Shown here piece after piece: positions 1-24,000 of a DNA stretch of 24,000 nt. The DNA lies in contig CAIOZU010000036.1 of the NCBI GenBank assembly GCA_903862885.1, positions 21,284-45,283 of the forward strand. Reading direction: 5' to 3'. Position 1 is the stretch's first letter. Each line of letters starts with the position of its first letter. The translations under genes and the position numbers were made by a program. The stretch comes from an uncultured Pseudomonadota bacterium (lineage in GTDB: Bacteria > Pseudomonadota > Gammaproteobacteria > Steroidobacterales > Steroidobacteraceae). The notes under the pieces are model-generated. The model had not been told where the DNA came from, made no database searches, and saw nothing but the letters and a program-made list of their open reading frames with translations.

Positions 1-391
1 TGGCCTTGCCCGCTAGGCCGACCAACTTAAGCAGTTCCATGCCTTTGTTCTCGGCTTCTGCTTGACTGATGCCGCGAAGCTTGATTGGCGACAGGGTTAA
101 GTTCTCAAGCACCGTGAGGTGGCTAAAGAGGTTAAAACCTTGGAACACCATATTCATTTTCTGGCGTACCTTCGGTACGTCAGTGTCAGGGCTCAACAGA
201 TCGACGCCATCAATGGAAATTTTCCCACTGGTGGGGTGCTCAAGTAGGTTGAGGCAACGCAGCAGGGTGCTCTTGCCGGTACCTGAGGGGCCAATGATCG
301 CAACCACTTCGCCTTGGTGGATTTCGGCCGTGATGTCCTTCAGTACGGTGAGTGGGCCGTACTGCTTGGTTAAATGCTCAATCTTAATCAT
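1..391 (-). CDS. Polar amino-acid ABC transporter ATP-binding subunit, 5' part only (gene continues past the window start)
   Basis: Hand translation of the minus strand from ATG 391..389 gives MIKIEHLTKQYGPLTVLKDITAEIHQGEVVAIIGPSGTGKSTLLRCLNLLEHPTSGKISIDGVDL...MVFQGFNLFSHLTVLENL. It has Walker A GPSGTGKST and a GlnQ/ArtP/HisP-like N-terminus. The start overlaps the stop of the upstream permease gene (ATGA at 388..391). It is missing from the ORF track because it is open at the window edge. The + strand ORF 69..431 is its shadow. Confidence 0.9.
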   Translation of the reverse strand, partial: MIKIEHLTKQYGPLTVLKDITAEIHQGEVVAIIGPSGTGKSTLLRCLNLLEHPTSGKISIDGVDLLSPDTDVPKVRQKMNMVFQGFNLFSHLTVLENLTLSPIKLRGISQAEAENKGMELLKLVGLAGKA

Positions 392-2649
392 ACGGCACCT
401 GCCTTGCGGCGCTTGGTCTTGGGGTCAGTGACTCGCTCGAGATAGTTCAGTGCCTGGAGCAATACACCCGATATCAAGAAGTAAAGAACAGCGATCATCA
501 TCAGTGGGAAGAACGCATCAAAGGTGCGGCTTCGGATGATGTCGCTTGCCTTGGTCAGATCCTGCACGGCGATATAACCGACGATTGAGGTCATCTTTAC
601 CAGAGAGATGAATTCGCCCTTGTACACCGGCAGAATTCTCACGATGGTTTGTGGCAGCACGATGTTAATGAAGGTGCGTGTTTGGCTAAAGCCCATGGCG
701 ATGCCGGCCTCTGTTTGACCGCGATCTAGGCTGCTCATGCCGGCGCGGAAGATCTCTGCGAAGTACGCTGCAAAGTTCATACCGAAGGCAATGACCGCCA
801 CCAGGATGGGGCTAATGCTCAAGGACGCAAACACAATGTAGAAAATCACCATGAGCAGCACGAGGACCGGCGTGCCCCGCAAGATGGCAATGTAAATCGA
901 TGCGGGATGACGCAGCCAGCCACTGGCGCTCATGCGCATGAAGCAGATAAGCCCGCCAAGCGCTGTGCCAAACAAGGTGGCTAGAATCGAGATGATGACG
1001 GTGGTCTGTAGGCCGTCCCAGATCAGAAGGTAGCGCTTCTCCAAGAGGATATTGCTTCGGAAGCTGTCCGCGACGCGTGCAAAATACCCAAGCTTTTCAG
1101 CGGCAGGTGTCGCATCGGGGGTGCCATCCAAGGCCGCAATATTGGATTTGAGCGCAAAGACGCGGACTGCTTGCTCATCGTAGGAATCGGAGAAATCGAT
1201 TTTCTTTTGGCGCTCCTCGGTGATGAAGATGGAGTCCGCGATCAGGTCCACTTTTTTCGTGGCTACCGCAGCAACGAGGCTGGAGAAATCCATATTGGAA
1301 AATTGGACGGGACGGTTGAGTGACGCGGCGAAGCGCTTCGTGAGCTCGATATCAAAGCCGACCAGCTCATTGTCTTTGACCGCTACGTAGGGCAGTCCGC
1401 TGACCGATGTACCGACAACCAGCGCGTTCGTGCCGGTGACAGCGGGTATGGGCTGGGCTTGTGTATCCTGATCGTCGAGCCAACGTTTTTGCATGTCTGC
1501 ATACACGCCGTTTTGTCGGATCGACTTCAGAAAGTCATTGAACTGCTGCTTAAGGGCCGTGTTGTCCTTATTAAAACCCAGACCCACGGGGAATGAAAAG
1601 ACGGGTTCTCCGACCGCGGCTAGGGTGGGCTCGGCTTTTAAAATTTCCTTCAACGCCTCGACGTCTGTCAGCGAGGCCTCTGCCTTGCCACTTTTGATCG
1701 CCATGATGACGTCTGATGCCGACTGGTACTGTAAGGTCGTGGCATCCGGATAGTTGGTGGTGACATAGAGAACGTAGGCGGTACCAATCTGGGCCGCGAT
1801 TTTCCGGCCATGCAGATCGCTCGATGAAGTGATTTTATGGTGGGTCGGTTCCGTCTCCACGGCGGACGCGCTGGTGGGCACCACCAACACTTGGTGGATG
1901 TCGGTGTAGGAGTCAGTGAAGTCGATTGACTTCTTGCGCTCGTCTGATGCGGCCATGCCGCCACCGATGATGTCAATCTTCTCTGCCTGCAGTGACTGGA
2001 TCAGTGCCATGAACTTCATGTCAATGAATTCGATGGGTCTATTCAGCTTAATGCCGATACGGCGCACCATTTCAGCGTCGTGACCGCTGATGAGGCCTTG
2101 GCCATCCACGAAAATCAATGGCTCACGGGTCGCGGCCACGCCCACTCTGAGGGGTTTGCCGGTGGTCGGCATGGTCAGGGTGGGTACGTCGTAGGTGGTG
2201 GTGCCCACCTGTAGCCAGCGGGACTCCATGGAGGCGAGCGTGCCGTCGGCTCGCATCTCAGCCAGGACGGCGTTTAGGCTGGCGAGCAAGTCGCTGTTGC
2301 CTTTGCGAACGCCGATGGCCAAGTGTTCGAATGACAGCGGGGCGTTCAATACTTTCAGGCCTGGATTTTTCTTGACCAGCTGGTTCGCGGTGAGATCGGC
2401 GGTGAGGAAGGTATCGAGCTGGTTGGCTTTGACCGCCGCCGCCGCGTCTAAGATGTCATCGAAATGCATCAGTGTGGCTTCAGGAAAACGCTTCGCTGCG
2501 ATGGCTTCACCGGTTGAGCCGGTGAGCACACCAATTTTGGCGTGATTGGCGTCGTCTAGAGCCTCGATGGTCAATCGATCGGGGTGGCAAGCCGTGAGTG
2601 CGAGCAGGCTGAGCAGTAGCCCTGCAGAAAGGGGCAGCGTTTTTTTCAT
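388..2649 (-). CDS. ABC transporter fusion protein: lipoprotein signal, periplasmic type-3 solute-binding domain segments, and a polar amino-acid permease domain
   Basis: 753-aa ORF. The N-terminus MKKTLPLSAGLLLSLLALTAC has an L-T-A-C lipobox. Residues ~165-392 look like a complete SBP_bac_3-type domain (LRVGV...IDFTDSY...DLHGRKIAAQIGT...RWL). Residues ~540-753 are a HisM/GlnP-type permease with the EAA loop (TEAGIAMGFSQTRTFINIVLPQ). The gene is translationally coupled to the ATPase gene. Confidence 0.9.
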   Translation of the reverse strand: MKKTLPLSAGLLLSLLALTACHPDRLTIEALDDANHAKIGVLTGSTGEAIAAKRFPEATLMHFDDILDAAAAVKANQLDTFLTADLTANQLVKKNPGLKVLNAPLSFEHLAIGVRKGNSDLLASLNAVLAEMRADGTLASMESRWLQVGTTTYDVPTLTMPTTGKPLRVGVAATREPLIFVDGQGLISGHDAEMVRRIGIKLNRPIEFIDMKFMALIQSLQAEKIDIIGGGMAASDERKKSIDFTDSYTDIHQVLVVPTSASAVETEPTHHKITSSSDLHGRKIAAQIGTAYVLYVTTNYPDATTLQYQSASDVIMAIKSGKAEASLTDVEALKEILKAEPTLAAVGEPVFSFPVGLGFNKDNTALKQQFNDFLKSIRQNGVYADMQKRWLDDQDTQAQPIPAVTGTNALVVGTSVSGLPYVAVKDNELVGFDIELTKRFAASLNRPVQFSNMDFSSLVAAVATKKVDLIADSIFITEERQKKIDFSDSYDEQAVRVFALKSNIAALDGTPDATPAAEKLGYFARVADSFRSNILLEKRYLLIWDGLQTTVIISILATLFGTALGGLICFMRMSASGWLRHPASIYIAILRGTPVLVLLMVIFYIVFASLSISPILVAVIAFGMNFAAYFAEIFRAGMSSLDRGQTEAGIAMGFSQTRTFINIVLPQTIVRILPVYKGEFISLVKMTSIVGYIAVQDLTKASDIIRSRTFDAFFPLMMIAVLYFLISGVLLQALNYLERVTDPKTKRRKAGAV

Positions 2650-6627: not shown

Positions 6628-7239
6628 TTAGGGGCCGCTCCAGTCGATCTGGACGATCTCAGCGCTTTTTCCTGACAGGTCCCAGACGCGCCCAAAGTCG
6701 CGCATCTTGCTCTTGACGCTACGTGCCACGGTCACGTCCGGACCCATCCAGTATTCCGTGTTTTGAATCATGGTTTGCTCACCACTGCGTTTGCCCGTGA
6801 TGGGCTCGACCGATGCCTTTAATACATTGCCGATTGTGATGTGGCGGATGGCACCCTCACGGGTGATCGAGATGGGTAACTGTTTAGTGCCTAAGTGGGT
6901 ACTGACTAACAGCCGGAACAGGCCGGTGGTGCCGCCCGCTTGGCCGCTAAAAATGTGTTCCAAGCCAGTCAGCGCGGCGGTCGAGGCACGCTCGTCCACA
7001 TAGAGCGCGGCCGTCCAGTTGCCATTGCCCATGCGGCCTGGGATATCGAGCAGCATGCCGACATTCAGATCGGTGAGTGAGACATCACCATAGGCGCCCT
7101 CCGTGATGTGTATGCCGACCCAGCCCTGGCAATAGCCTTGCGTTGGTGCGTGTTTGCCTAAGCTCACAACGCACGGACAGAACACGTCGCAGTTGCAGTT
7201 CAGAACCAACTCGCCCTTCATATGCCATGGTGTCGTCAT
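6628..7239 (-). CDS. DUF1326-family protein (uncharacterised, N-terminal five-cysteine cluster)
   Basis: 203-aa ORF with strong SD AGGAGAG. The N-terminus ELVLNCNCDVFCPCVVSLGKHAPTQGYCQGW carries five cysteines. This matches my recollection of the DUF1326 description (~210 aa, five conserved N-terminal Cys). Confidence 0.75.
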   Translation of the reverse strand: MTTPWHMKGELVLNCNCDVFCPCVVSLGKHAPTQGYCQGWVGIHITEGAYGDVSLTDLNVGMLLDIPGRMGNGNWTAALYVDERASTAALTGLEHIFSGQAGGTTGLFRLLVSTHLGTKQLPISITREGAIRHITIGNVLKASVEPITGKRSGEQTMIQNTEYWMGPDVTVARSVKSKMRDFGRVWDLSGKSAEIVQIDWSGP

Positions 7240-7248
7240 ACATCTCTC

Positions 7249-8043
7249 CTAGTGAATAAGGCCAGGCGCAATCCACACGGTGCCCCAAGCCACCAGTGCC
7301 ACGCCGACCGCGCGTCCGATCCAAAGCCCTGCGGGCAGTACTTTCTCAATCAGCATTAACACGGTAAGTCCTGCTGTGAAGCCCAGATCCATGGTGCCGG
7401 TGGCCACCATGAGCAGCATCAGTGCCCAACAGCAGCCCACGCAGTATGCGCCGTGGTGTAGTCCAAGACGTAGAGCGCCGGCTAATCCCTCACGCCAATG
7501 GGCGATGAAAAAGGTCATCGGGTTGCGGCACTTAGTGAGGCAGGCCTGCTTCAGTGGCGCAAATTGATAAGCACCCGCCAGTAGCAGCAGCGCGCCGAAA
7601 ACCCAGTCATGCGTCGCGCGATGTAAGTGTTGGCTCACTGTGGAGATGCCCCACTGGGCGAGGGTGGCGAGTGCGCAGAAGGCCAGCCAGGCGAGCAGAT
7701 AGCCGGTCACGAAGGCGCCTTCGCTTAAGGGGCGGGTCGTGTGGCGGGCGCGCTCGGCGAGATCGGAGAACGTGAGGATCGCGGGTGCTGCGGTCGGCAA
7801 CATCATGGCAATGGACATCACAAACCACATCGATAGCACGCTCATGCTATCGGCGAGCGAGGCGTATCCCGGCGGTTTTGCGTGTGCGGTGTACGGCGTG
7901 TGCACGGTCGGTGTTAAGCAGCCAAGACCCGCCGGGTTGTGAAGGAGCGATACCCAGGCGATGCCACTTAACATCACCAACGCCGCTGACACTATCCATC
8001 GCGGATGCAGGAGTAATCGGGCGGCGGGGTGATCGGTGTGCAT
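7249..8043 (-). CDS. DUF2182-family integral membrane protein (predicted metal-binding)
   Basis: 264-aa polytopic ORF. Motifs MWFVMSIAMMLPTAAPAIL and HHGAYCVGCCWALMLLM resemble the DUF2182 signature. Its stop is 9 nt before the DUF1326 start. Confidence 0.75.
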   Translation of the reverse strand: MHTDHPAARLLLHPRWIVSAALVMLSGIAWVSLLHNPAGLGCLTPTVHTPYTAHAKPPGYASLADSMSVLSMWFVMSIAMMLPTAAPAILTFSDLAERARHTTRPLSEGAFVTGYLLAWLAFCALATLAQWGISTVSQHLHRATHDWVFGALLLLAGAYQFAPLKQACLTKCRNPMTFFIAHWREGLAGALRLGLHHGAYCVGCCWALMLLMVATGTMDLGFTAGLTVLMLIEKVLPAGLWIGRAVGVALVAWGTVWIAPGLIH

Positions 8044-8051
8044 GGCGCGCG

Positions 8052-9155
8052 TTAGATAAACGGCAGGGTCTGTAAGTGTCCTGCCACCGGTTGGCCGTCC
8101 TTGCGTACGTCCACTCGGTCACCGACCTGACAGTTCACATCAATCAGCGCGAAACCGATGTTCTTTTTCAGTCGATAAGACCAAGCGCAGTTGGTGAGAT
8201 CGCCCACCTTGACGCCATCGCGATAAATGGGGTGCCAGAGAAAGCCAAACGGCGTGGGTTCGTTGCCCTCGAGGACGACGCCTAACTGATGGCGCTTGAC
8301 GCCCTCGCGTTTAATTTGGCGAAGCGCCTCGATGCCGATCACGTCATTCGCCACATCAAGATCAATGTATTTATCGAGACGCACTTCAAACGGGTTGGTG
8401 CGATCATCGGTATCGCCGCCATAAGACAGCAGCCCGCTCTCGACGCGCTCACAGAAGTTGGGATTACCAGGGCCGATGTCCCATGGCTTACCGGCTTCCT
8501 TAAAGATATTCCAGAGTTGGCTGCCTTTAGCGCCGTCTCTCAGGTAAATTTCGTAGCCCCCTTGTTTCGACCAGCCGGAGCGTGCGACCACCACCGGAAT
8601 GGTATCGATGGTGGTTTCTTTGAACCAAAAATACTTGAGATCGCGCACCCAATCGCCGCACACGGACGCCACCACCTCAACAGCCTTCGGTCCTTGCAGG
8701 GCAAGTGGCGAGACGTCCGGCTCGCTGACCGCTACCTGCAGTTTGCGCTCCGCCGCAATCGCACGCGCCCAAAACCAAATATTCGAATCCGCGATCGATA
8801 GCCACAGGTGATCCTCGGCCAGCTTCAGCAAAATGGGGTCGTTGATTAATACCCCCTGATGGTTGCATAGCGGCACGTATTTGCCTTGGCCAGGGAGGCA
8901 CTGGGCGAGTGATCGGGGCGTGAGGATCTGGGCGAGCTTTAAGGCGTCGGGGCCTTTCAGTTCGACTTGCCGTTCGACCGCCACGTCCCACAGAGACACC
9001 CCATGGATGAGCCGCCAGTACTCTTCCTCTGGGTGACCGAAGCTGGTGGGCATTAACATGTGGTTATAGGTGGTGAACGCCGTGACCCCCTCAGCCACCG
9101 TGGCCGCGAAGTAAGGGGAGGGGCGAAGTCGTGCGGATGGGGTGATGCCAAACAT
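8052..9155 (-). CDS. Aminomethyltransferase (GcvT) family protein, DmdA-like (candidate tetrahydrofolate-dependent DMSP or other methyl-donor demethylase)
   Basis: 367 aa. Blocks RLRPSPYF..TTYNHMLMPTSF, LWDVAVERQVELKGPDA, SEPDVSPLALQGPKA, VVARSGWSKQGGYEIYL and ERVESGLLSYGGD match the DmdA subgroup of GcvT-fold enzymes as I remember it. The size also fits (~365-370 aa). Confidence 0.8.
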   Translation of the reverse strand: MFGITPSARLRPSPYFAATVAEGVTAFTTYNHMLMPTSFGHPEEEYWRLIHGVSLWDVAVERQVELKGPDALKLAQILTPRSLAQCLPGQGKYVPLCNHQGVLINDPILLKLAEDHLWLSIADSNIWFWARAIAAERKLQVAVSEPDVSPLALQGPKAVEVVASVCGDWVRDLKYFWFKETTIDTIPVVVARSGWSKQGGYEIYLRDGAKGSQLWNIFKEAGKPWDIGPGNPNFCERVESGLLSYGGDTDDRTNPFEVRLDKYIDLDVANDVIGIEALRQIKREGVKRHQLGVVLEGNEPTPFGFLWHPIYRDGVKVGDLTNCAWSYRLKKNIGFALIDVNCQVGDRVDVRKDGQPVAGHLQTLPFI

Positions 9156-11356: not shown

Positions 11357-12295
11357 TTAAGGCTCTAACACCACTTTGATGGCGCCGGCCGCACGATTAT
11401 TAGCCATTTGGAAGGCTTCTGGTGCGGCATCGATCGGAAAACGGTGCGTGATGAGGGTGCTGGCGATTAAGGGGTTGGCGGCCAGTGCTGCCGCGGCGAC
11501 GTCGACGTCGCGACTGAGTCCACACTGATCATAAAGGCTTGAAGCCACCAGTCGCAGCGACTTCATGCCGATCTCTAGGGCAGGGATGGTTAAGCTCTGC
11601 CAGTAAGTGGCCAGCATCAGAATGGTGCCGCCGGGTCGACACAGAGTCACGCAGTGCGCCATCGCCTCCGTGGTGCCGGCGCAGTCGACAACTACTGGGA
11701 ATTCACCGCTGCCGTCCACTTGAGCGCCTAAGCGCACGGCCGCTTCGCGCTGCGCATCGTGTCGCGCGAACACCGTGAGACCACTCACATAGCCGCTGGC
11801 CATGGCCGCAGTGCAAAGGCCTAAGGAGCCGGCGCCGACGATTGCCATCGGTTCGCGTGGGTTAAGAGGCACTCGACGCAGGCCGTGGAGGGCGACCGCT
11901 AATGGCTCAACGAGACACGCATCGCTCGGTCGCAGTCCGTCAGGTAGGCGCACCAGGCAGCGCGCGGGGACGATGATTTCATCGGCCATGCCGCCGTCAT
12001 GGCTTACCCCATAGATCATGCCCGCACCGCGCCGACACAGCGCGTACTCGCCACGTGTGCAGCTGTCGCAGTGACCGCAGGGTGCGATCGGCTCGATGGC
12101 GACGCGTGTCCCGTTACTCAGTTCGCCCGCCATCTCATGACCGAGTGTGCTGGTGATGGGCCAGCCCGCAGCGATCAGGTGCAGGTCGGAGCTGCAAATA
12201 CCCGCCGAACGAATACGAACGCGGATGCCATCACCCTGCGGGGGCGCCACGTCCACCACCTGGACGTGGCCGGAAAGAGTTCTGACAGCGCGCAT
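11357..12295 (-). CDS. Zinc-dependent alcohol dehydrogenase (MDR superfamily)
   Basis: Catalytic-zinc motif GHEMAGE, structural-zinc cysteines CGHCDSCTRGEYALC, and a Rossmann segment MAIVGAGSLGL. Confidence 0.85.
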   Translation of the reverse strand: MRAVRTLSGHVQVVDVAPPQGDGIRVRIRSAGICSSDLHLIAAGWPITSTLGHEMAGELSNGTRVAIEPIAPCGHCDSCTRGEYALCRRGAGMIYGVSHDGGMADEIIVPARCLVRLPDGLRPSDACLVEPLAVALHGLRRVPLNPREPMAIVGAGSLGLCTAAMASGYVSGLTVFARHDAQREAAVRLGAQVDGSGEFPVVVDCAGTTEAMAHCVTLCRPGGTILMLATYWQSLTIPALEIGMKSLRLVASSLYDQCGLSRDVDVAAAALAANPLIASTLITHRFPIDAAPEAFQMANNRAAGAIKVVLEP

Positions 12296-12501
12296 CGAGA
12301 GGTGTCCAGAGAGTGCAGGAAGACATCCATGCTAACGCAAAGTCATTGGAAATGGGTGTTGTGCCTCATTAGGGCTGATGCGTCCGGGTAATACTTGTTT
12401 TATAAAGCTTGGGTTTTATAGAAGTTGGGGTTGGAGTGGACCGCTGGAGTCAACCGTGGAGGCCCTGGTCGTGAATAGAGTGCTTTGCACCGTGGAATCT
12501 T

Positions 12502-12813
12502 GTGAGGCGTAGCCCGTTCGCCTGGCATGGCGCGATGATCCTGACGGCGATCGGGGTCCTGCTGCTGTGCGCGAACACATCGGTGCTGGCTGCGCCGATT
12601 CAATCGCTCCGTGAGATTCGTTACCAGGGAATCGTTCTGCAGCGTTTCGAAACCAGTTGTGGTGCTGCGGCGATCGCGACCGTCTTAAGTTACGCCTTTC
12701 ACGATGTGGTGACTGAGTGGGGGGTGGAGCTGGGTAAGCGCTTGGCGGATGCGCTGGCACCGGCGGTTACTGGTGGCGTCAGGCGGCCTGAGTATTCCCA
12801 CCTCACAGGGTGA
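12502..12813 (+). pseudogene. N-terminal fragment of a periplasmic C39-like cysteine peptidase (likely remnant)
   Basis: Signal-like start MRRSPFAWHGAMILTAIGVLLLCANTSVLAA. It is followed by LREIRYQGIVLQRFETSCGAAAIATVLSYAF, the catalytic-Cys block of C39-like peptidases. Recognisable similarity ends after ~70 aa, and the downstream His/Asp region is absent. Confidence 0.4.
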
Positions 12814-13084
12814 ACACACTCAGCCCCTCCCTTATGTGTCGAGCGCTTATCTGGGTGCGACCGCTGTTAAGAATCTGGAGCCGCTGGTTGTGTTTGGTGG
12901 TCTATCCTATGTATATGCCATGAGAACATCGGGTGCGCGATTGTATGGTGCGCCGCCGGACAGTGTCGTTACGCGCTTAGGGGCATCGCTGGCGATCAGT
13001 CCGTTCACGGCGGTGACCGCCGGTTTGAACGCCAGCTATGTGGTGTCTGCCAATCCGTATTATCAGGTGCAAGCCCAAGTGTGA
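12749..13084 (+). pseudogene. C-terminal fragment of an outer-membrane beta-barrel transporter-like protein (likely remnant)
   Basis: It is in a different frame from 12502..12813 and overlaps it. The tail shows alternating beta-strand patterns (LVVFGGLSYVYAM, VVTRLGASLAISPF, AVTAGLNASYVVSA). There is no signal peptide and no N-terminal barrel portion. Confidence 0.35.
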
Positions 13085-13131
13085 CCGTCAATGCAACAGT
13101 TCCCTGCGGCGGCGGTGAATAACCCTTGACT

Positions 13132-13189
13132 CCCCTCGGTGATCTGCCGATCACTGAGGGGTATTGGCGGCCTGTCTGAGTGGGCCGCC
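13132..13189. terminator. Two adjacent GC-rich hairpins between convergent genes
   Basis: Hairpin 1 (13132..13161): CCCCTCGGTGATC-tgcc-GATCACTGAGGGG, a 13-bp stem with one G-U. Hairpin 2 (13166..13189): GGCGGCC-10 nt-GGCCGCC. Neither has a U-tract. Confidence 0.3.
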
Positions 13190-13225
13190 TACCTGCAGTG
13201 TCGGCAGCAATCCGTCACGCACACG

Positions 13226-13618
13226 CTATAACGATGACGTTTCGCGTTGGATAGCAACCCAGGCGACGATGGTGCGACCGACTTTAATGGGTACCACACG
13301 CCAAAACATAATAAAGGGCGTGCCATCTTTCTTGTAGTTGATGGCCTTGCCTTCAAATCGTCCCCCTGACTTGAGCGCGGTGGCTAAGCGTGCGATCACT
13401 TTCTTGTCGGTCGCAGGACCTTGCAGGATGCGGGGTGTTTTACCGACGACCGCCGCCGGATCAAAGCCGGTCAGTTTCTTGAATGCGGTGTTGGCGTAGA
13501 TGATTTTTCCATCACGTGACGCATCGGTAATCAAAACAGAATCAAAACTGTTTTCAACTAAGGCTTGCAGTAGTTGTAATTCTGCATTTTCACTTGCTAA
13601 GTTCACTGACTTTGCCAT
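13226..13618 (-). CDS. Short stand-alone PAS protein, LOV-like but lacking the adduct-forming cysteine
   Basis: The sequence VLITDASRDGKIIYANTAFKKLTGFDPAAVVGKTPRILQGPATD...INYKKDGTPF...VAIQRE aligns with the LOV consensus (..GRNCRFLQGpeTD..NYrKdGtpFwN..Q.D). ATG 13618 is preferred over 13672 because AAGGAAA lies 7 nt upstream. Confidence 0.8.
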   Translation of the reverse strand: MAKSVNLASENAELQLLQALVENSFDSVLITDASRDGKIIYANTAFKKLTGFDPAAVVGKTPRILQGPATDKKVIARLATALKSGGRFEGKAINYKKDGTPFIMFWRVVPIKVGRTIVAWVAIQRETSSL

Positions 13619-13950
13619 GGGGTATTTCCTTTGAAGCGGTGACGATGGGTGAGGCGATCGGGACCGACTCATGAAGGGTCGCCGATGAAGGGGGCAGTAT
13701 AGCCATCACGTTGGCCATCGGCGATGGTATCGCGCCGATCGCGACAGGCGATCAAGCCAGGATGAGGCGCTATGCGCGTCCTTGTCCTAGACAACACGGT
13801 CATGGAGTTCAATCGGTGGGTCGTTGGCCTGCCCGTGAGCTTAACGAGCATAGGGGGCTTTATCTCTGGTGAGCTCGCCGAGTACAGCTTGCCTCGCCAT
13901 TAGTCTTTAGAATAGTCCTCACCATGTTGGTCACTGATCCAAAAGGCTGA

Positions 13951-15489: not shown

Positions 15490-17319
15490 TTAATGAGCGG
15501 CAGACTTCGATGGCTCCGCGCGCGGGGGTGCCACGCCATCACCCCCTGGCATGGGAACGTGGCTTGGCGAATAGAAGCGATCGGCGGGGGTCGTTGCCAT
15601 GAAGGCGCTGGCGAGGTTTCCGGCTGAGACAGTGGGGGCGGCGGTGAGTGGGTCGTAGCGAAACGGCAGTAAGGTACGAAGCGCGTGCCAAGCTGCGGTC
15701 GGGCCCGCGCCAAACTGGCGGGTAGGGTCCTCGAGCTGTCGAATGTCCATCCAATAGGCGGCGTTCAGTAAGTCTTGTCCTAGGATGTCGCGCGATACAT
15801 CCAGCGCTTGGCGCAGACGCATCAGTTTCAACATAGGAACGGCGTCGATGTCACCGACGCCTTTGTCAGCGCTGACGCCATCCGGCGCGACCGGATTGGC
15901 GAGCGGCTTCAGTTCCTGCCACAGCGCATCCGCCGCGCCACCCCCGCCGCCCGCGCCGGCGCCATTCACACCGGAAGGTCCTGGGTGCGTTTTCAGTATC
16001 TGTCGAGCGTCAGTGACGGTGAAAAAAGTGTCCTCGAAGCGATGCATCCGCTGGACCACTACGACCATGAGGTTCGTCAGAGCAATCGGAAAGGCTTCGA
16101 CGTCGTCGACCAACGGATACGGATCCCAGTCTGAGTTCGACAGAATGAAGCCGTGTTTGCCGTGGCTGTACTTGCCGCCTTTGACGTAGTACTTCAATAG
16201 TTGTGGTGTTGACAGCTCCCACGAATCCTCGGGGGCAATATCCGGTCGCACGGTTGGGTTGTGATCGGTTGAGTTCATTTGCACGAGGGTGCTGTCGCGT
16301 AGCCGCGACCACGCCTGCCAAGCGCCGCCCGCGCGCCACACCGTGGCTCGTAGGCTCTCTGGGTCTTGAATAATGCGAAAGTCGCCGTTGAATACGTAAC
16401 TGCCCTTGAGCATATCCAGCGTGCGCGCGGCCGCGTAGTTGGCCCATGCGAACGGTCGGGTCGCCTGCACCGGCATGGTCAACGGACCAATGCTGCCGTT
16501 CATGGCATTAAGATCCATGGCCCAGACAACATCGTGCCATTCCAACAGATGGCGAATGTCATTCACCAACAGGGCCGCGAAGCCGGCGGTTAGGGCGCTG
16601 GTCGTGGCTAGGTTGCCATCGGCTCCCTCGAAATGAATGGGTTTTAGTCCGGCGCGGCGTAAGGCTTCAGCCGCGGGTAAGCGGATGCCTTTGTAATATG
16701 CGAAACCCCGGCCACGAAGCACCGTCCCTGTGGGTACGAAGTCGGCTTCGCCGATGGCGCCGCGCCATTGCACCGCCGGTGTGACGCCTGCGTTCAGTAG
16801 ATCCGCGATGCCTTGCACGAAGCCCGCACTCGCGGCGAGATAGCGCATGTTATTGAGATCCACCGCCAGCATGGCCCGACCCACTTCTTCCTCTGGGATG
16901 TCTTCACCAAAGCCGATTTCTGAATAGCCGGGGCCTGAGTAACGACGGGCGATTTCCGCCTTGAATTCGGCTGAGTCCGGGTCGCCTTTTAGGGAGGCCT
17001 CTTCACGACCAGACCCCGGTGAGCGATTAAACAGATACACCGGTATCCCTTCGGCTTGTGCCTCGAGAATGAGGCCGAATGATGCCTCAGCCCCTTGGAT
17101 GAGCTCCGGACTGAGGTGCACTTTTGCGCCATCGCGTGCGATGGCAACCAGTTGCTCAATGGACAAGTCATGGCCGGTCAGGGTGATCGTTTGCCCGGCT
17201 TTTTGGGGATCAATGACGTGATACGGTACGGCGCCGAGGGCGCTGCTGAGTGGCAGGACAACGCCCAAGAAGGCGGCGCTTGTAAGACGTTGAAATCGCC
17301 ATCTGACTGACTGACGCAT
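15490..17319 (-). CDS. Secreted protein with an aromatic amino-acid ammonia-lyase (HAL/PAL) fold, lacking the MIO-forming Ala-Ser-Gly triad
   Basis: 609 aa with SD AGGAGAG. Sec-type signal MRQSVRWRFQRLTSAAFLGVVLPLSSALGA. Blocks collinear with HutH: ITLTGHDLSIEQLVAIA, IQDPESLRATVWRAGGA (HutH has VQDPYSLRCQPQVMGA) and NSTDHNPTV (HutH has NAVSDNPLV). At the GSVGASGDLAPL position it reads GAIGEADFVPTG (16732..16761). Confidence 0.7.
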   Translation of the reverse strand: MRQSVRWRFQRLTSAAFLGVVLPLSSALGAVPYHVIDPQKAGQTITLTGHDLSIEQLVAIARDGAKVHLSPELIQGAEASFGLILEAQAEGIPVYLFNRSPGSGREEASLKGDPDSAEFKAEIARRYSGPGYSEIGFGEDIPEEEVGRAMLAVDLNNMRYLAASAGFVQGIADLLNAGVTPAVQWRGAIGEADFVPTGTVLRGRGFAYYKGIRLPAAEALRRAGLKPIHFEGADGNLATTSALTAGFAALLVNDIRHLLEWHDVVWAMDLNAMNGSIGPLTMPVQATRPFAWANYAAARTLDMLKGSYVFNGDFRIIQDPESLRATVWRAGGAWQAWSRLRDSTLVQMNSTDHNPTVRPDIAPEDSWELSTPQLLKYYVKGGKYSHGKHGFILSNSDWDPYPLVDDVEAFPIALTNLMVVVVQRMHRFEDTFFTVTDARQILKTHPGPSGVNGAGAGGGGGAADALWQELKPLANPVAPDGVSADKGVGDIDAVPMLKLMRLRQALDVSRDILGQDLLNAAYWMDIRQLEDPTRQFGAGPTAAWHALRTLLPFRYDPLTAAPTVSAGNLASAFMATTPADRFYSPSHVPMPGGDGVAPPRAEPSKSAAH

Positions 17320-17583
17320 GCTTCGCTCTCCTGCTTAACGGGATCGACTCTGTGCGGAAGGCATCAGTGCCTGATGTCTCACTTTACCTCTGCAGGGGAG
17401 AGTGAGGTGAGGCGCTGAGCCGTTCGCCGACCGGTTAGTGTCATACCGAGTCTGGCAGGTGGGTTGTGTGCCGGCAAGGCGTGATCAGAATCATCCCTTT
17501 ATAGTGAGAAATAGCTGACTTATGCTGGGTAACTGCGCACAATAGGATGGTCAGCTCCCCGTCACCTTGGCTCTGGAGGTCCG

Positions 17584-19321: not shown

Positions 19322-19867
19322 ATGACCACGACGCCTTTTGCAGAGGTTCCCGCTTCAGACGGCGGAGCGGTGGCGCCGCTGACACTGCCACAACGCAAGG
19401 CGCGTGGGTTTTGTGTGTGCGCGCTGCACCTGCCTCATGAATCAGCGGTAACGTCCGATGCAGTGCTCTGCGAGGTTCATCCGGAGCAGGGGGTCTATTC
19501 GGACGAGTACAATCAAGCGCGCGGTTTTCTATTTTTTGATGACCGTCGCCACCGCTATGTCACTTGGCCGGATGCGGTGGAGGGAATGCGCCAGCCCCGG
19601 TATGCCGGCGCGTCGAGTAGAGGACTCGTGCTGTTCACTTGGATGAACTTGATACGGCTGCTAGAGGCCCTGTGTCATCCCGAACGTCAACCCGTAGAGG
19701 TTATTACCGAAGCCGAAGCCAATGCGCTGATTGCGCAGGCTGGGCAGCGCTTCCCTCCTGATGAGCTCAGTTGCCTGATCAGTTTCGCGCGCGGTGGGGG
19801 AACCGGCACACTGTGCAAAGTATTTCGACGAGTTGCCCTCAATGGACCAGCACCGAGCGTGCTGTGA
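19322..19867 (+). CDS. Hypothetical protein, 181 aa, no family recognised
   Basis: It is the longest ORF in this interval, with ATG preceded by GGAG about 11 nt upstream. It ends 57-69 nt before the flavoprotein gene on the same strand. I see no recognisable motif, signal peptide or TM segment. Confidence 0.5.
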   Translation: MTTTPFAEVPASDGGAVAPLTLPQRKARGFCVCALHLPHESAVTSDAVLCEVHPEQGVYSDEYNQARGFLFFDDRRHRYVTWPDAVEGMRQPRYAGASSRGLVLFTWMNLIRLLEALCHPERQPVEVITEAEANALIAQAGQRFPPDELSCLISFARGGGTGTLCKVFRRVALNGPAPSVL

Positions 19868-19936
19868 GCTAAACCGCACTGCCATTTGCCGACCGACTTT
19901 TCTATAAAACCACCAGATCATTAAGTGATACGGCTT

Positions 19937-21193
19937 ATGCAAAACCCGACAGCAACGCATGCCGTGCACACGCCACAACGCGTGCACATCTTAGGTGCCG
20001 GCCCCGTGGGGCTGGTCATGGCCGCGATGCTGCAATCGATGCCAGGATTTTCTATTCGTTTGTACGAGAAGCGGACCACGTATACGCGCGCTCGAATGGT
20101 CATGCTGGCCTCTTATCTGGTGGCCGACTCTCTTTCCGCTTATGCCGCGGATGAGGTTGATGGCGATAACGTCGCCGCTATTTTTGATGCCACGGAGTTA
20201 GAGGCCGGCTTAAGCGCACGGCGTTCTGTGACTGCAAAACTTGTGGCCTTGATTAAAGACTGGAGTCAGGGCTTTTGTCCTCTGAATACCATTGAGAAAG
20301 GCATCAGCGCTTTGATTGAGGAGGGTGGGCCGAGTCCTGTGGAGCGAATCGTGGGCAACGTGAGCGTAGACCAGGCGTTAGCCATGGTGGCGCCGGATGA
20401 CATCATGATCGACTGCACGGGTTGCAACTCCTTGCTTCGTAACCACTTGGTGCCTGATCAAGTAGGCGAGGTCAGTGCAGCTGAGCGCAATACCTACACG
20501 CTCCGCTTAGAATACGCAGTCAACGTGACTTTTTTGTATGGAGCGCCCTATCAGTGTAACGAGTACTGCAAGTACTACAAGAACCACGGTAATGCCCAGT
20601 ACAAATTCATCCCGGCTGTCGATCGCATCGCGCGGGACGCGGGTGTCACGCATGTGTTCGGAATCATCAGTATTTCAGCGGAGGACTTCGCGGCGATGCC
20701 ACCGACTTGCAAGGGCGATTATTTGCGTGAGAATTTTCCTGCTGTCGCTGTCTCTATGGATCGCTTCATCGAGCAGATTGACAAGGAGACCGGTGGTCAA
20801 GTCATTAGTGAGATTGAGATCGTCCGTATCCCATTGAACTTGTATCACGCGCGAAACGCAACCAATCGCGCATGGCATGTTAAAAGCGCGAGTGGTCAGT
20901 CTGATGACGGCGCGCATTCTTTTTCCAAGGCCTCTGTATTTTTAGTGGGTGATGCAGCGATCGGATCTCCGTATTTTCAGTCGATCTCGCTCGGCATTGA
21001 GTGCGCCATGTTTCTGGCGGGGCTCTTACAGGAAGGAATACCGATGTCTGATGTGCGTAGCCAGTATGAGGCGCGGATTTATAAGCAATGGCTCCGCGTT
21101 TACATGCGCAGTAAAACCATCAAGCACAACAAAGACATATTTGAGCGACTGGACGACACATTTGGCATCTTAGAGCAGCTTAAAATCTATTAA
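19937..21193 (+). CDS. Divergent FAD-dependent (group A flavoprotein monooxygenase-like) oxidoreductase
   Basis: N-terminal dinucleotide fold VHILGAGPVGLVMAAMLQS...IRLYEKR. A mid-protein block IMIDCTGCNSLLRNHL sits where GADGxxSxxR is expected. C-terminal VFLVGDAAIGSPYFQSISLG is a GD motif. The start is ATG 19937 or GTG 19925; neither has a clear SD. Confidence 0.7.
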   Translation: MQNPTATHAVHTPQRVHILGAGPVGLVMAAMLQSMPGFSIRLYEKRTTYTRARMVMLASYLVADSLSAYAADEVDGDNVAAIFDATELEAGLSARRSVTAKLVALIKDWSQGFCPLNTIEKGISALIEEGGPSPVERIVGNVSVDQALAMVAPDDIMIDCTGCNSLLRNHLVPDQVGEVSAAERNTYTLRLEYAVNVTFLYGAPYQCNEYCKYYKNHGNAQYKFIPAVDRIARDAGVTHVFGIISISAEDFAAMPPTCKGDYLRENFPAVAVSMDRFIEQIDKETGGQVISEIEIVRIPLNLYHARNATNRAWHVKSASGQSDDGAHSFSKASVFLVGDAAIGSPYFQSISLGIECAMFLAGLLQEGIPMSDVRSQYEARIYKQWLRVYMRSKTIKHNKDIFERLDDTFGILEQLKIY

Positions 21194-21973: not shown

Positions 21974-22340
21974 GACAGAGGCTCCTGAGCGCTTGGCTTT
22001 TGTGGATTTTGCTTCGCTAGAGGGGAAGCCGGGCGCGAGTCTCACCTATTCACTGGTAGATGGTCAACTGCGCCGCGCTTGTCTTCTGGCGTGCCGGTGG
22101 TAGACGACTGCACTGTCGTCGGCCGCACGGAACGTTACCTGTGGAAAGCCCAGTGCCGCATGCGGGTCTAAAACGGGTTTTCATGCCTTAAGGAGGCGTC
22201 GGCAGGCAATCGATAGGGGTCGTCTGCGTGTCCAACGAGCGGTTGCAGCGGCGCTTGGCGTGAGAATGCGCAGATTGCGTTGGGTCCTCCGTCTGGGCGA
22301 TTAAAAGGTTGTATCCAGTGCCGATGGCAGTGGCCTATCA

Positions 22341-22358
22341 TGGATGGATGGATGGATG
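22341..22358. repeat. Tetranucleotide tract (TGGA) x4.5
   Basis: Read directly: TGGATGGATGGATGGATG. It lies 83 nt upstream of the TonB-dependent receptor start. Confidence 0.85.
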
Positions 22359-22440
22359 TCGTGCCGCCCGTGAGGTAACGCGCCGTTCGGTGGTTCGCTA
22401 TAATGGATACGTAGATCAATCGGTCAAGGTGGACGTTCGT

Positions 22441-24000
22441 ATGCGGATCAATGTGCGGTGGTTGTTATTGCACCGCGGGAGGGGCATCGGGCACGTCTTG
22501 GGGCTTATCTTCGCTGTATCGAGTGGGTCGTCTGTGGCGACCGTTCAGGATGTTCTGCAGGAAGTGACCGTGACGGGGTCACTGATCCGTCAGAACCCGT
22601 TGGAAGTCCGATCACCCGTGCAGGTCTTTACATCGGCGGATATTGAGAAGTCCGGCATCGTTGGGCTGGGCGATTATCTTCAGTCGTTGCCTATCGCGGG
22701 GGCGTCGATCAATCGCAGCAACAACACCGCAGGCAATCTTGGATTTCCACCGGATGGGTCGGGCACCGGCACCGGTGCCTCAGAGATCGACCTGCGGTAT
22801 TTGGGTTCAAAGCGCACGCTGGTGCTAGTCGACGGACGTCGATGGGTGCATGGGTCCTCGGCGAGTGGTGTATCCGGTGCGGTGGATCTCAATACCATTC
22901 CGGCCAACGCCATCGAGTCCATTGAAATTCTACAAGACGGGGCCTCGACGATCTATGGCAGTGACGCGATTGCGGGTGTGGTGAATGTGATTACCCACAA
23001 GCGCTATGACGGCAAGTTCAATATTTCTCTTTATGATGGCGCTTATTCGGCAGGTGATGGACAGGCGACGACCATTGATGTGTCGTGGGGCGCCCAGTCG
23101 GATCAGTCACGGGTGTGGGTGGGCGCGAGCTACGAGGATCAGCGCCGAATCAATTCGGGTGACCGAGCCATTTCGGCCTATAGCATTCCCGGACTACCTA
23201 TTGGTGTGAGTTCCGGGACGCCGCAAGGCACATTCTTCTTCACGGATCCGCGCATACCCGATCCGCAGCAGCTGGGATTGAATCAGGTGGGCATCACACT
23301 CAATGGAGGCGCCATCAATACCGGTCAGACGGGTGTCTTGCCGCAATACGATCCTAATAATCCCTGTGGGGGCAGTTTTCACTGCTTTACGACGGCCGAT
23401 CGCTATAACTACCAGTCGGTGAATGTACTCGCGACACCCAATCAGCGCGTCAATTTATTTACAAAGGGGGAGTTGGATTTGTCATCGAGCGTATCACTGC
23501 ACGCAACGGCGGGAGTGACCCACAGACGATCGAGCTCGCAAGCAGCGCCGGAGCCGCTGTTCTTAGGGCCTGGCGGCGCGGGGGGGCAATGGCTGGAGAA
23601 TGTGGTCATTCCGGCGAATCAACTCTATAACCCGTTCGGTATCACCTTAGATTCTAGCAACATCGACACGCTGGCTCGCCGTCCACTGGAGGCAGGGCCT
23701 CGAATCTTTGAGCAGACCGTCAATACCTTTAACGTCACGGCGGGACTCGATGGGCGCCTCACGCTCGCTCGTCAAACGTGGTATTGGGACGTCACCGGCA
23801 GTTGGTTCCTGAACCATGCCAACCAACGTAAAGAAGGTGATTTTAACGCGCACAATTTAGTCATTGCGCTGGGTGATCCGCTGGTCTGTGCGGCAACCAA
23901 TGGCTGTGTGCCCTTCAATTTCTTCGGTGGGCAGGGAACCGGGTCGGGTTCGATTACCCAGGCGATGTTGGACTATGTGACCTACATTGAGCGGGACTCG
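22441..24000 (+). CDS. TonB-dependent outer-membrane receptor, N-terminal 520 aa (gene continues past the window end)
   Basis: Hand translation from ATG 22441 is open to the window end (1560 nt, in frame). It reads MRINVRWLLLHRGRGIGHVLGLIFAVSSGSSVATVQDVLQEVTVTGSLIRQNPLEVRSPVQVFTSADIEKSGIVGLGDYLQSLP...LRYLGSKRTLVLVDGRRW...IESIEILQDGASTIYGSDAIAGVVNVITHKRYDG. This is a TonB box plus plug domain followed by the start of the barrel. It is absent from the ORF track because it has no stop in the window. Confidence 0.9.
   Translation, partial: MRINVRWLLLHRGRGIGHVLGLIFAVSSGSSVATVQDVLQEVTVTGSLIRQNPLEVRSPVQVFTSADIEKSGIVGLGDYLQSLPIAGASINRSNNTAGNLGFPPDGSGTGTGASEIDLRYLGSKRTLVLVDGRRWVHGSSASGVSGAVDLNTIPANAIESIEILQDGASTIYGSDAIAGVVNVITHKRYDGKFNISLYDGAYSAGDGQATTIDVSWGAQSDQSRVWVGASYEDQRRINSGDRAISAYSIPGLPIGVSSGTPQGTFFFTDPRIPDPQQLGLNQVGITLNGGAINTGQTGVLPQYDPNNPCGGSFHCFTTADRYNYQSVNVLATPNQRVNLFTKGELDLSSSVSLHATAGVTHRRSSSQAAPEPLFLGPGGAGGQWLENVVIPANQLYNPFGITLDSSNIDTLARRPLEAGPRIFEQTVNTFNVTAGLDGRLTLARQTWYWDVTGSWFLNHANQRKEGDFNAHNLVIALGDPLVCAATNGCVPFNFFGGQGTGSGSITQAMLDYVTYIERDS

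Follow-up and report, generated by a model that had tools for sequence, protein, structure and literature searches.

The lyase gene and its product

A 24,000-nucleotide stretch from an uncultured member of the family Steroidobacteraceae (Gammaproteobacteria; assembly GCA_903862885.1, contig CAIOZU010000036.1, positions 21,284 to 45,283), hereafter referred to as the window, encodes on its minus strand (15490..17319) a complete protein of 609 amino acids (aa) that has the aromatic-lyase fold (PF00221) but not the 4-methylideneimidazole-5-one (MIO) prosthetic group of the histidine and phenylalanine ammonia-lyases (HAL and PAL). The assignment is based on Pfam, phmmer, AlphaFold2, and Foldseek. 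The reading frame starts with ATG, is uninterrupted, and is preceded by a Shine-Dalgarno sequence read directly from the DNA (AGGAG, 17328..17332, minus strand), with a spacer of 8 nt to the start codon. The match to the Pfam profile Lyase_aromatic (265.7 bits, E 9e-79; gathering threshold 27.3) covers profile positions 1–465 of 466 and residues 52–548 of the protein. All sequence blocks cited by a preceding sequence-only reading (ITLTGHDLSIEQL, QDPESLR, NSTDHNPTV, and GAIGEADFVPTG) are present, and the protein is indeed about 100 aa longer than HutH. An identical 609-aa protein is on record on nine contigs.

The N-terminus (residues 1–30; 17230..17319, minus strand) resembles a Sec-type signal peptide, with a basic n-region (MRQSVRWRFQR), a hydrophobic core (LTSAAFLGVVLPLSS), and an ALGA motif before the mature part. 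A crude test for hydrophobicity and charge detected a signal-like segment in 94 of 111 full-length homologs; most of the others are shortened gene calls. The segment itself varies in sequence, whereas the mature protein, which begins near a conserved (E)AYRPI motif, is conserved. In the AlphaFold2 model, residues 1–28 form a detached helix of low confidence (pLDDT about 48–60). Export via the Tat pathway was rejected, because the protein has no twin-arginine motif and two arginines precede the hydrophobic core in only 17 of the 111 homologs; the N-terminus also contains no lipobox cysteine. The properties of the N-terminal segment suggest that the protein is exported to the periplasm by the Sec system, as the sequence-only reading had proposed.

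When 1.84 billion cluster representatives were searched exhaustively with HMMER, 1848 clusters (50% identity) were retrieved at E ≤ 1e-3. None of the full-length representatives among the 150 best clusters contains Ala-Ser-Gly, and many of them have signal-like N-termini. The same set includes named proteins from Shewanella, Raoultella, and Pseudochrobactrum, which are labeled as members of the HAL/PAL/TAL family or as histidine ammonia-lyases. A separate search over one genome per species (185,579 species) retrieved 25 loci, which belong to gammaproteobacterial metagenome-assembled genomes (MAGs) from bogs and soils (Steroidobacteraceae and relatives), Sphingomonas, Acetobacteraceae, Rhodospirillales, Woeseia, and Thermoleophilaceae or Solirubrobacteraceae. 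Cultured carriers are Sphingomonas zeicaulis DSM 100587 and Flavisphingomonas (Sphingomonas) formosensis CC-Nfb-2. Among the 111 full-length homologs (56–86% identity), the motifs GAIGEADFVP, PVYxFNR, QDPESLR, NSTDHNP, poly-Gly, and KGVGD(I/L)DAVP are at least 90% conserved. The gene is under strong purifying selection (dN/dS 0.055–0.109 against five orthologous genes, with dS saturated).

Loss of MIO and predicted rebuilding of the substrate pocket

There is consistent evidence that the MIO triad has been lost. At the position of the Gly-Ala-Ser-Gly-Asp of MIO enzymes, the protein reads G190-E191-A192-D193 in phmmer alignments with PDB chains, in a MAFFT alignment with 60 relatives, and in hhalign comparisons, and none of these alignments shows an Ala-Ser-Gly in register anywhere in the protein. 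The absence of the triad, first noticed from the sequence, thus withstands a profile check, and so does the conclusion that canonical MIO-dependent deamination is not possible; the 12-residue motif (G187–G198, GAIGEADFVPTG), however, occupies 16726..16761 (minus strand, as are all features of the protein) rather than the previously given 16732..16761. Conservation of the substituted residues, for which a survey had been proposed, proved to be high: G190, E191, and D193 do not vary within the family and match the G-E-[GA]-D (or G-x-[AS]-D) signature of MIO-independent trimethylammonia-lyases. A deletion of three to four residues after G-E-A-D-F-V-P is specific to the subclade of the window protein.

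Other elements of the active site are retained. The Tyr loop (P93–E106, PVYLFNRSPGSGRE; 17002..17043) is not degenerate and contains the predicted catalytic base (Y95); the family shows no variation at Y95, N98, R99, G102, and R105, and the loop reads PVYxFNR, like the PVYGLNR of ergothionase and unlike the YGxNTGFG of HAL. The predicted carboxylate binders Q318 and R324 are located in the QDPESLR block (Q318–R324; 16348..16368) and N349 in the NSTDHNP block (N349–P355; 16255..16275). Together with the G-E-x-D pocket, Y95, Q318, R324, and N349 are invariant across 43 homologs with 51–86% identity. An hhalign comparison of the profile of the window protein's clade with that of ergothionase-type sequences (probability 100%, E 4.3e-78, 525 columns) identified Y95 (Y54 in ergothionase), R105/E106 (K64/D65), R148, G-E-x-D, Q318/D319/R324, N354/P355, and D490 as shared positions. 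The roles assigned to these residues (base, carboxylate binders, and ring binders) are carried over from papers on ergothionase-type enzymes.

Sequence and structure agree on the closest characterized relative. The best match in the PDB by sequence is the ergothionase of Treponema denticola (6s7j; E 1.6e-29), followed at a distance by the best MIO enzyme (E 1.2e-17; phmmer). The same structure is also the best fold match of the AlphaFold2 model (mean pLDDT 83.3, pTM 0.87), with a Foldseek E of 4.7e-23, a target TM-score of 0.79–0.80, and 24% identity. The MIO enzymes (HutH, PAL, TAL, TAM, and PAM) share the fold (target TM-score 0.72–0.81 for bacterial members), the Tyr loop, and the carboxylate-binding Arg, but they have the Ala-Ser-Gly that is absent from the window protein and are only 16–20% identical. 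In NCBIfam, the score of the protein stays well short of the curated cutoff for each named MIO enzyme, including those of the equivalog models for HutH (TIGR01225, 109.8 bits vs 539.15; NF006871, 110.5 bits vs 524). In a neighbor-joining tree, which is rough (318 columns, no bootstrap, and partial sequences as outgroups), the MIO-less sequences are set apart from HAL and PAL, and the clade of the window protein is nested among them, in line with the ranking of matches by sequence and by fold. The lineage with the QDPESLR motif forms one group inside the MIO-less set, and the GE[AS]DF subclade, which comprises the window protein, is its most derived part.

MIO-less members of the fold are a large and established branch, the trimethylammonia-lyases, so that the loss of MIO does not by itself point to an unprecedented activity or a binding role, as had been suggested. 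Ergothionase is a MIO-independent lyase that eliminates trimethylamine from ergothioneine; according to the papers on ergothionase-type lyases, MIO-less lyases require a trimethylammonium substrate, and ergothionase can dispense with an electrophilic cofactor because the quaternary ammonium leaves readily by itself. Nor are all characterized members cytoplasmic, as the sequence-only reading had stated. Although typical ergothionases are cytoplasmic, two preprints from one laboratory (bioRxiv 10.1101/2025.08.13.670108 and 10.64898/2026.04.22.720169) describe periplasmic, MIO-less PF00221 enzymes of Shewanella: the Mg2+-dependent histidine-betaine lyase Swoo_3913, the ergothionase SO_3057, and the N-pi-methyl-histidine-betaine lyase SO_3299. 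Each of their genes adjoins that of a urocanate-reductase-type flavocytochrome for anaerobic respiration. In essence, the initial description of the feature was accurate, whereas the unprecedented biology that had been deduced from it did not stand.

The clade of the window protein differs from these enzymes in its predicted substrate pocket. The His84 of ergothionase-type enzymes (His117 in Swoo_3913) aligns to S133 in a variable column, and the thiolate-binding Lys384 aligns to either G461 (phmmer, MAFFT) or D464 (hhalign). These residues are located in a segment with a conserved poly-Gly stretch (G457–G461) and ADALWQELKPLANP (G453–P476; 15892..15963); residues 453–467 contain neither Lys nor Arg, and a basic residue near the position of Lys384 is absent in all three alignments. 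The imidazole-binding Glu (E414 in HAL, E412 in ergothionase, Glu467 in Swoo_3913) aligns to the nearly invariant G489 in KGVGDIDAVP (K486–P495; 15835..15864), next to the retained D490. Moreover, the position of Leu278 in ergothionase (Tyr280 in HAL) is occupied by E321, Asp310, which is invariant in ergothionase-type sequences (DDNP), is replaced by H353, and Asn197 aligns to S241; all three replacements are invariant in the clade of the window protein. Among the representatives tabulated, the His/Lys/Glu positions read H/K/E in 25 sequences (ergothionase type) and H/N/E in four sequences (histidine-betaine-lyase type, including a Shewanella cluster); the combination x/G/G occurs only in the clade of the window protein. 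Published work on MIO-less lyases reports that replacement of Lys384 abolishes ergothionase activity and that His and Glu contact the ring nitrogens. With none of the three ring-recognition residues retained and a different set of residues in the pocket, the substrate is probably neither ergothioneine nor histidine betaine.

Compared with ergothionase 6s7j, with which it shares the fold, the replacement of MIO by G-E-[GA]-D, the Tyr base in Y-x-x-N-R, the Gln/Arg/Asn binders, and the K64/D65 pair (R105/E106), the window protein is about 110 aa longer and differs not only in the residues listed above but also in its signal peptide-like N-terminus and in the deletion after G-E-A-D. Its clade has several insertions and, unlike ergothionase and HAL, a C-terminal extension of 55 residues (555–609; 15493..15657; delimited by conservation, AlphaFold2, and hhalign), in which conservation falls off toward a low-complexity tail. 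The likeness to the periplasmic trimethylammonia-lyases of Shewanella is similarly partial. Like the window protein, those enzymes belong to PF00221 and lack MIO, and they carry out lyase chemistry in the periplasm, to which the window protein is predicted to be exported; they keep the imidazole-binding His and Glu and the flavocytochrome neighbors, neither of which is found in the clade of the window protein. They were compared via cluster representatives, and a Shewanella protein belongs to the same 90% cluster as one of these; a representative of the Shewanella type (P0191; His/Asn/Glu, signal-like N-terminus) matches the window protein with E 3e-35 and 27% identity. While the Shewanella lyases serve anaerobic respiration, the clade of the window protein is found in Gammaproteobacteria from soils and bogs, in Sphingomonas, and in Thermoleophilia, and its informative loci show methylamine and C1 genes together with TonB-dependent receptors.

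Genomic neighborhoods of the lyase and its relatives

In the window, the lyase gene is monocistronic and flanked by genes for an SDR and a DUF1295 protein, an arrangement shared only with a relative of 86% identity (locus L006). There is no operon partner in the window: the neighboring genes (SDR, NAD_binding_10, PAS, DUF1295, and SnoaL-like) are convergent or divergent. A GcvT-family gene (8052..9155, minus strand) scores 380.5 bits against the NCBIfam equivalog model for the dimethylsulfoniopropionate demethylase DmdA (cutoff 410) and stands in a row with genes at 7249..8043 and 6628..7239; its combination with these neighbors, which encode a PpoB2 copper chaperone and a DUF1326 protein, is odd. 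The Plug domain of a TonB-dependent receptor is encoded by an ORF that starts about 5 kb from the lyase and reaches the end of the window (22264..24000, plus strand). Both the DmdA-like gene and the receptor were rejected as supporting evidence, because they are too far away and belong to separate transcription units. The window further comprises a 753-aa fusion of periplasmic solute-binding domains of the SBP_bac_3 type (three matched stretches) with the ABC permease domain BPD_transp_1 (388..2649, minus strand), a 181-aa ORF with no Pfam match (19322..19867, plus strand), and a 422-aa ORF with marginal Rossmann and FAD-binding matches at its N-terminus only (19925..21193, plus strand); searches of the window for Rfam families and tRNA genes gave no matches.

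More informative neighborhoods are found among the relatives. In Sphingomonas zeicaulis and a second Sphingomonas, one gene row comprises LysR, a TonB-dependent receptor, a lyase of subclade B, a lyase of the window protein's subclade, an OCD/mu-crystallin homolog, a binding protein, and a cupin. Beside this row are genes for HODM-alpha, two DmmA-like proteins (one above the NCBIfam cutoff of the DmmA family), GcvT, FolB, FolD, and PurU. The tandem lyases (L005, 6166–9899; L026, 8079–11782) consist of one paralog with GEGDL and VEDL motifs, which keeps the equivalent of Glu412, and another of the GEADF and GVGD type found in the window. The OCD/mu-crystallin gene is located 3′ of the second lyase and overlaps its stop codon by 4 nt, which suggests that the two are translationally coupled. 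A Thermoleophilaceae MAG (L030) has two lyases and a GcvT-like gene followed by a trimethylamine N-oxide (TMAO) demethylase above the NCBIfam equivalog cutoff (1169.9 vs 1100); the architecture of TMAO demethylase is DUF1989 plus GCV_T (PMC12560246). In a second locus (L028), an Fe-S flavoenzyme of the OYE/FadH type, an electron transfer flavoprotein (ETF), and an Fe-S oxidoreductase accompany two lyases and GcvT. The OYE/FadH gene was considered a candidate trimethylamine dehydrogenase; its NCBIfam matches are weak and to other members of the superfamily, and the gene is apparently frameshifted. Both loci stem from long-read Thermoleophilaceae MAGs that contain split genes: one lyase copy of L030 (722–2657) is divided into ORFs of 395 and 330 aa, and the flavoenzyme gene of L028 (2849–4971) into ORFs of 541 and 162 aa. 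These splits represent either assembly frameshifts or real pseudogenization.

In Woeseia, four divergent lyase genes are clustered between the gene of a TonB-dependent receptor, which as in Sphingomonas is located directly 5′ of the lyases, and those of an Amt-family transporter and ETFab; a CCG Fe-S protein is encoded at this locus as well. The four paralogs of this MAG (L025, JBBDXW010000048.1; 6657–15594) are 39–50% identical to the window protein and have different residues at the positions of the MIO site and of Glu412. The active sites of the aromatic-lyase fold lie at subunit interfaces, so that these paralogs could form hetero-tetramers or cover related substrates. The locus L009, whose lyase is 72% identical to the window protein, harbors a DAO-GCV_T gene of the dimethylglycine/sarcosine-dehydrogenase type at a distance of about 2.5 kb; an IS66-family transposase gene (12250–13698) is located between the lyase and this gene (DAO-FAO_M-GCV_T). 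Among 118 flanking ORFs, GCV_T occurs four times, and ETF, TonB-dependent receptors, and LysR occur three times each. No flavocytochrome or urocanate-reductase partner was found in the window, among the top 25 families from the flanking ORFs, or in the individually annotated loci.

Proposed reaction and competing explanations

The combined evidence argues, with somewhat better than even probability, for a Sec-exported, MIO-independent elimination lyase of the ergothionase/trimethylammonia-lyase branch that liberates a methylated amine from an N-methylated amino acid other than a histidine derivative. After export by the Sec system, the protein would assemble in the periplasm, which should be easy because no cofactor is needed. 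The alpha-carboxylate of an alpha-N-methylated amino acid would be held by Gln318, Arg324, and Asn349, and Tyr95 on its mobile loop would abstract the beta-proton. The alpha-N-methylated ammonium would then depart as a free amine from the acidic Glu191/Asp193 pocket that takes the place of MIO, leaving an alpha,beta-unsaturated acid (enoate) as product. An electrophilic cofactor would be dispensable, since quaternary and tertiary ammonium groups leave readily by themselves. The leaving group is most likely trimethylamine, by analogy with every characterized MIO-less member, or possibly dimethylamine, given the Dmm and HODM neighbors in Sphingomonas. The predicted pocket would lack imidazole and thione ligands and would be rebuilt with Glu321, His353, Ser241, and a poly-Gly wall. 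Our best guess, which is speculative, is that it accommodates a betaine or N-methylated amino acid whose side chain is larger or otherwise different; aromatic betaines, for instance tryptophan betaine, are conceivable candidates. In the relatives, the freed methylamine would feed the adjoining demethylation and C1 pathways, and the recurrence of this link to N-demethylation and C1 metabolism, which is seen in three or four lineages independently, is in keeping with the release of methylated amines by the lyase.

Several observations weigh against this interpretation. The window gene itself has no informative partner, and the only C1-type gene nearby, the DmdA-like GcvT, is about 6 kb away in another operon. 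All-vs-all clustering revealed no conserved neighborhood across 26 loci, the counts of neighboring genes stand without a genomic background rate, and the methylamine-linked contexts belong to relatives with 38–72% identity, some of them from other subclades. The neighbors in Sphingomonas are specific for dimethylamine and not for trimethylamine. Moreover, the invariant changes at Glu321, His353, and Ser241 could mean that the chemistry of the clade has been altered beyond specificity.

Taken further, the latter changes would be compatible with a novel chemistry that does not involve the elimination of an amine or with a non-catalytic periplasmic binder on a dead lyase scaffold. Such an outcome, to which we assign a small probability, would account for the fact that Glu321, His353, Ser241, the poly-Gly stretch, and Gly489 are invariant only in the clade of the window protein, and it agrees with the roughly 100 extra residues, including the C-terminal extension, and with the lack of a conserved operon partner that would point to a pathway. 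A pure binder, however, would not be expected to maintain the Tyr, the G-E-x-D pocket, and the Gln/Arg/Asn residues invariant across 43 homologs, and the methylamine and C1 genes beside the relatives fit the release of an amine. Decay can be dismissed with much greater confidence. A pseudogene or mis-called ORF, the former of which had been raised as a possible objection, is highly improbable and was rejected on the basis of dN/dS and motif conservation: the frame of 609 codons is intact and preceded by a Shine-Dalgarno sequence, the protein is present on nine contigs, and more than 110 full-length homologs have near-invariant motifs. No support for decay was found for the window gene; one lyase copy of the relative L030 is in pieces.

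It is likewise unlikely that the protein acts on ergothioneine or histidine betaine (hercynine) with another mode of imidazole binding. Ergothioneine and hercynine are abundant in soils, where they originate from fungi and actinobacteria, and the clade of the window protein stems from soil and bog habitats. Moreover, all characterized MIO-less members act on histidine-derived betaines, and ergothionase is the closest structure. By contrast, the equivalents of His84, Lys384, and Glu412 are gone according to three alignment methods; replacement of Lys384 reportedly abolishes ergothionase activity, and His and Glu are reported to bind the ring nitrogens. In addition, no genes for the processing of thiourocanate or urocanate were seen among the 118 flanking ORFs or in the separately annotated loci.

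The clade may constitute a new substrate class of cofactor-free lyases, although we consider this somewhat less than an even chance. Its members would be periplasmic enzymes of aerobic soil bacteria that release trimethylamine or dimethylamine from N-methylated amino acids not derived from histidine, for instance aromatic betaines such as hypaphorine. The fold, the mechanistic class, and the existence of periplasmic MIO-less members have already been described; new is a well-conserved subclade with a rebuilt pocket and a different ecology and genomic partners. In the literature searched, nothing relevant was found on MIO-independent lyases that use betaines not derived from histidine (hypaphorine and the like). 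Such a class would extend the MIO-less branch beyond histidine-derived betaines and would represent a previously unrecognized pathway by which betaines of plants and fungi are converted to volatile methylamines in soil, with relevance to the cycling of nitrogen and C1 compounds there and to the sources of trimethylamine. The tandem divergent paralogs (up to four in Woeseia) would then cover a family of such substrates. An enzyme that operates without a cofactor or post-translational ring formation could also be of interest for biocatalysis.

The clade of the window protein and many other MIO-less PF00221 proteins (P0003–P0120, P0272–P0274, and P0282–P0315 in our set) are labeled "histidine ammonia-lyase" or "hutH2" by JGI, NCBI, and UniRef despite the absence of the MIO triad. 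This labeling is a systematic misannotation.

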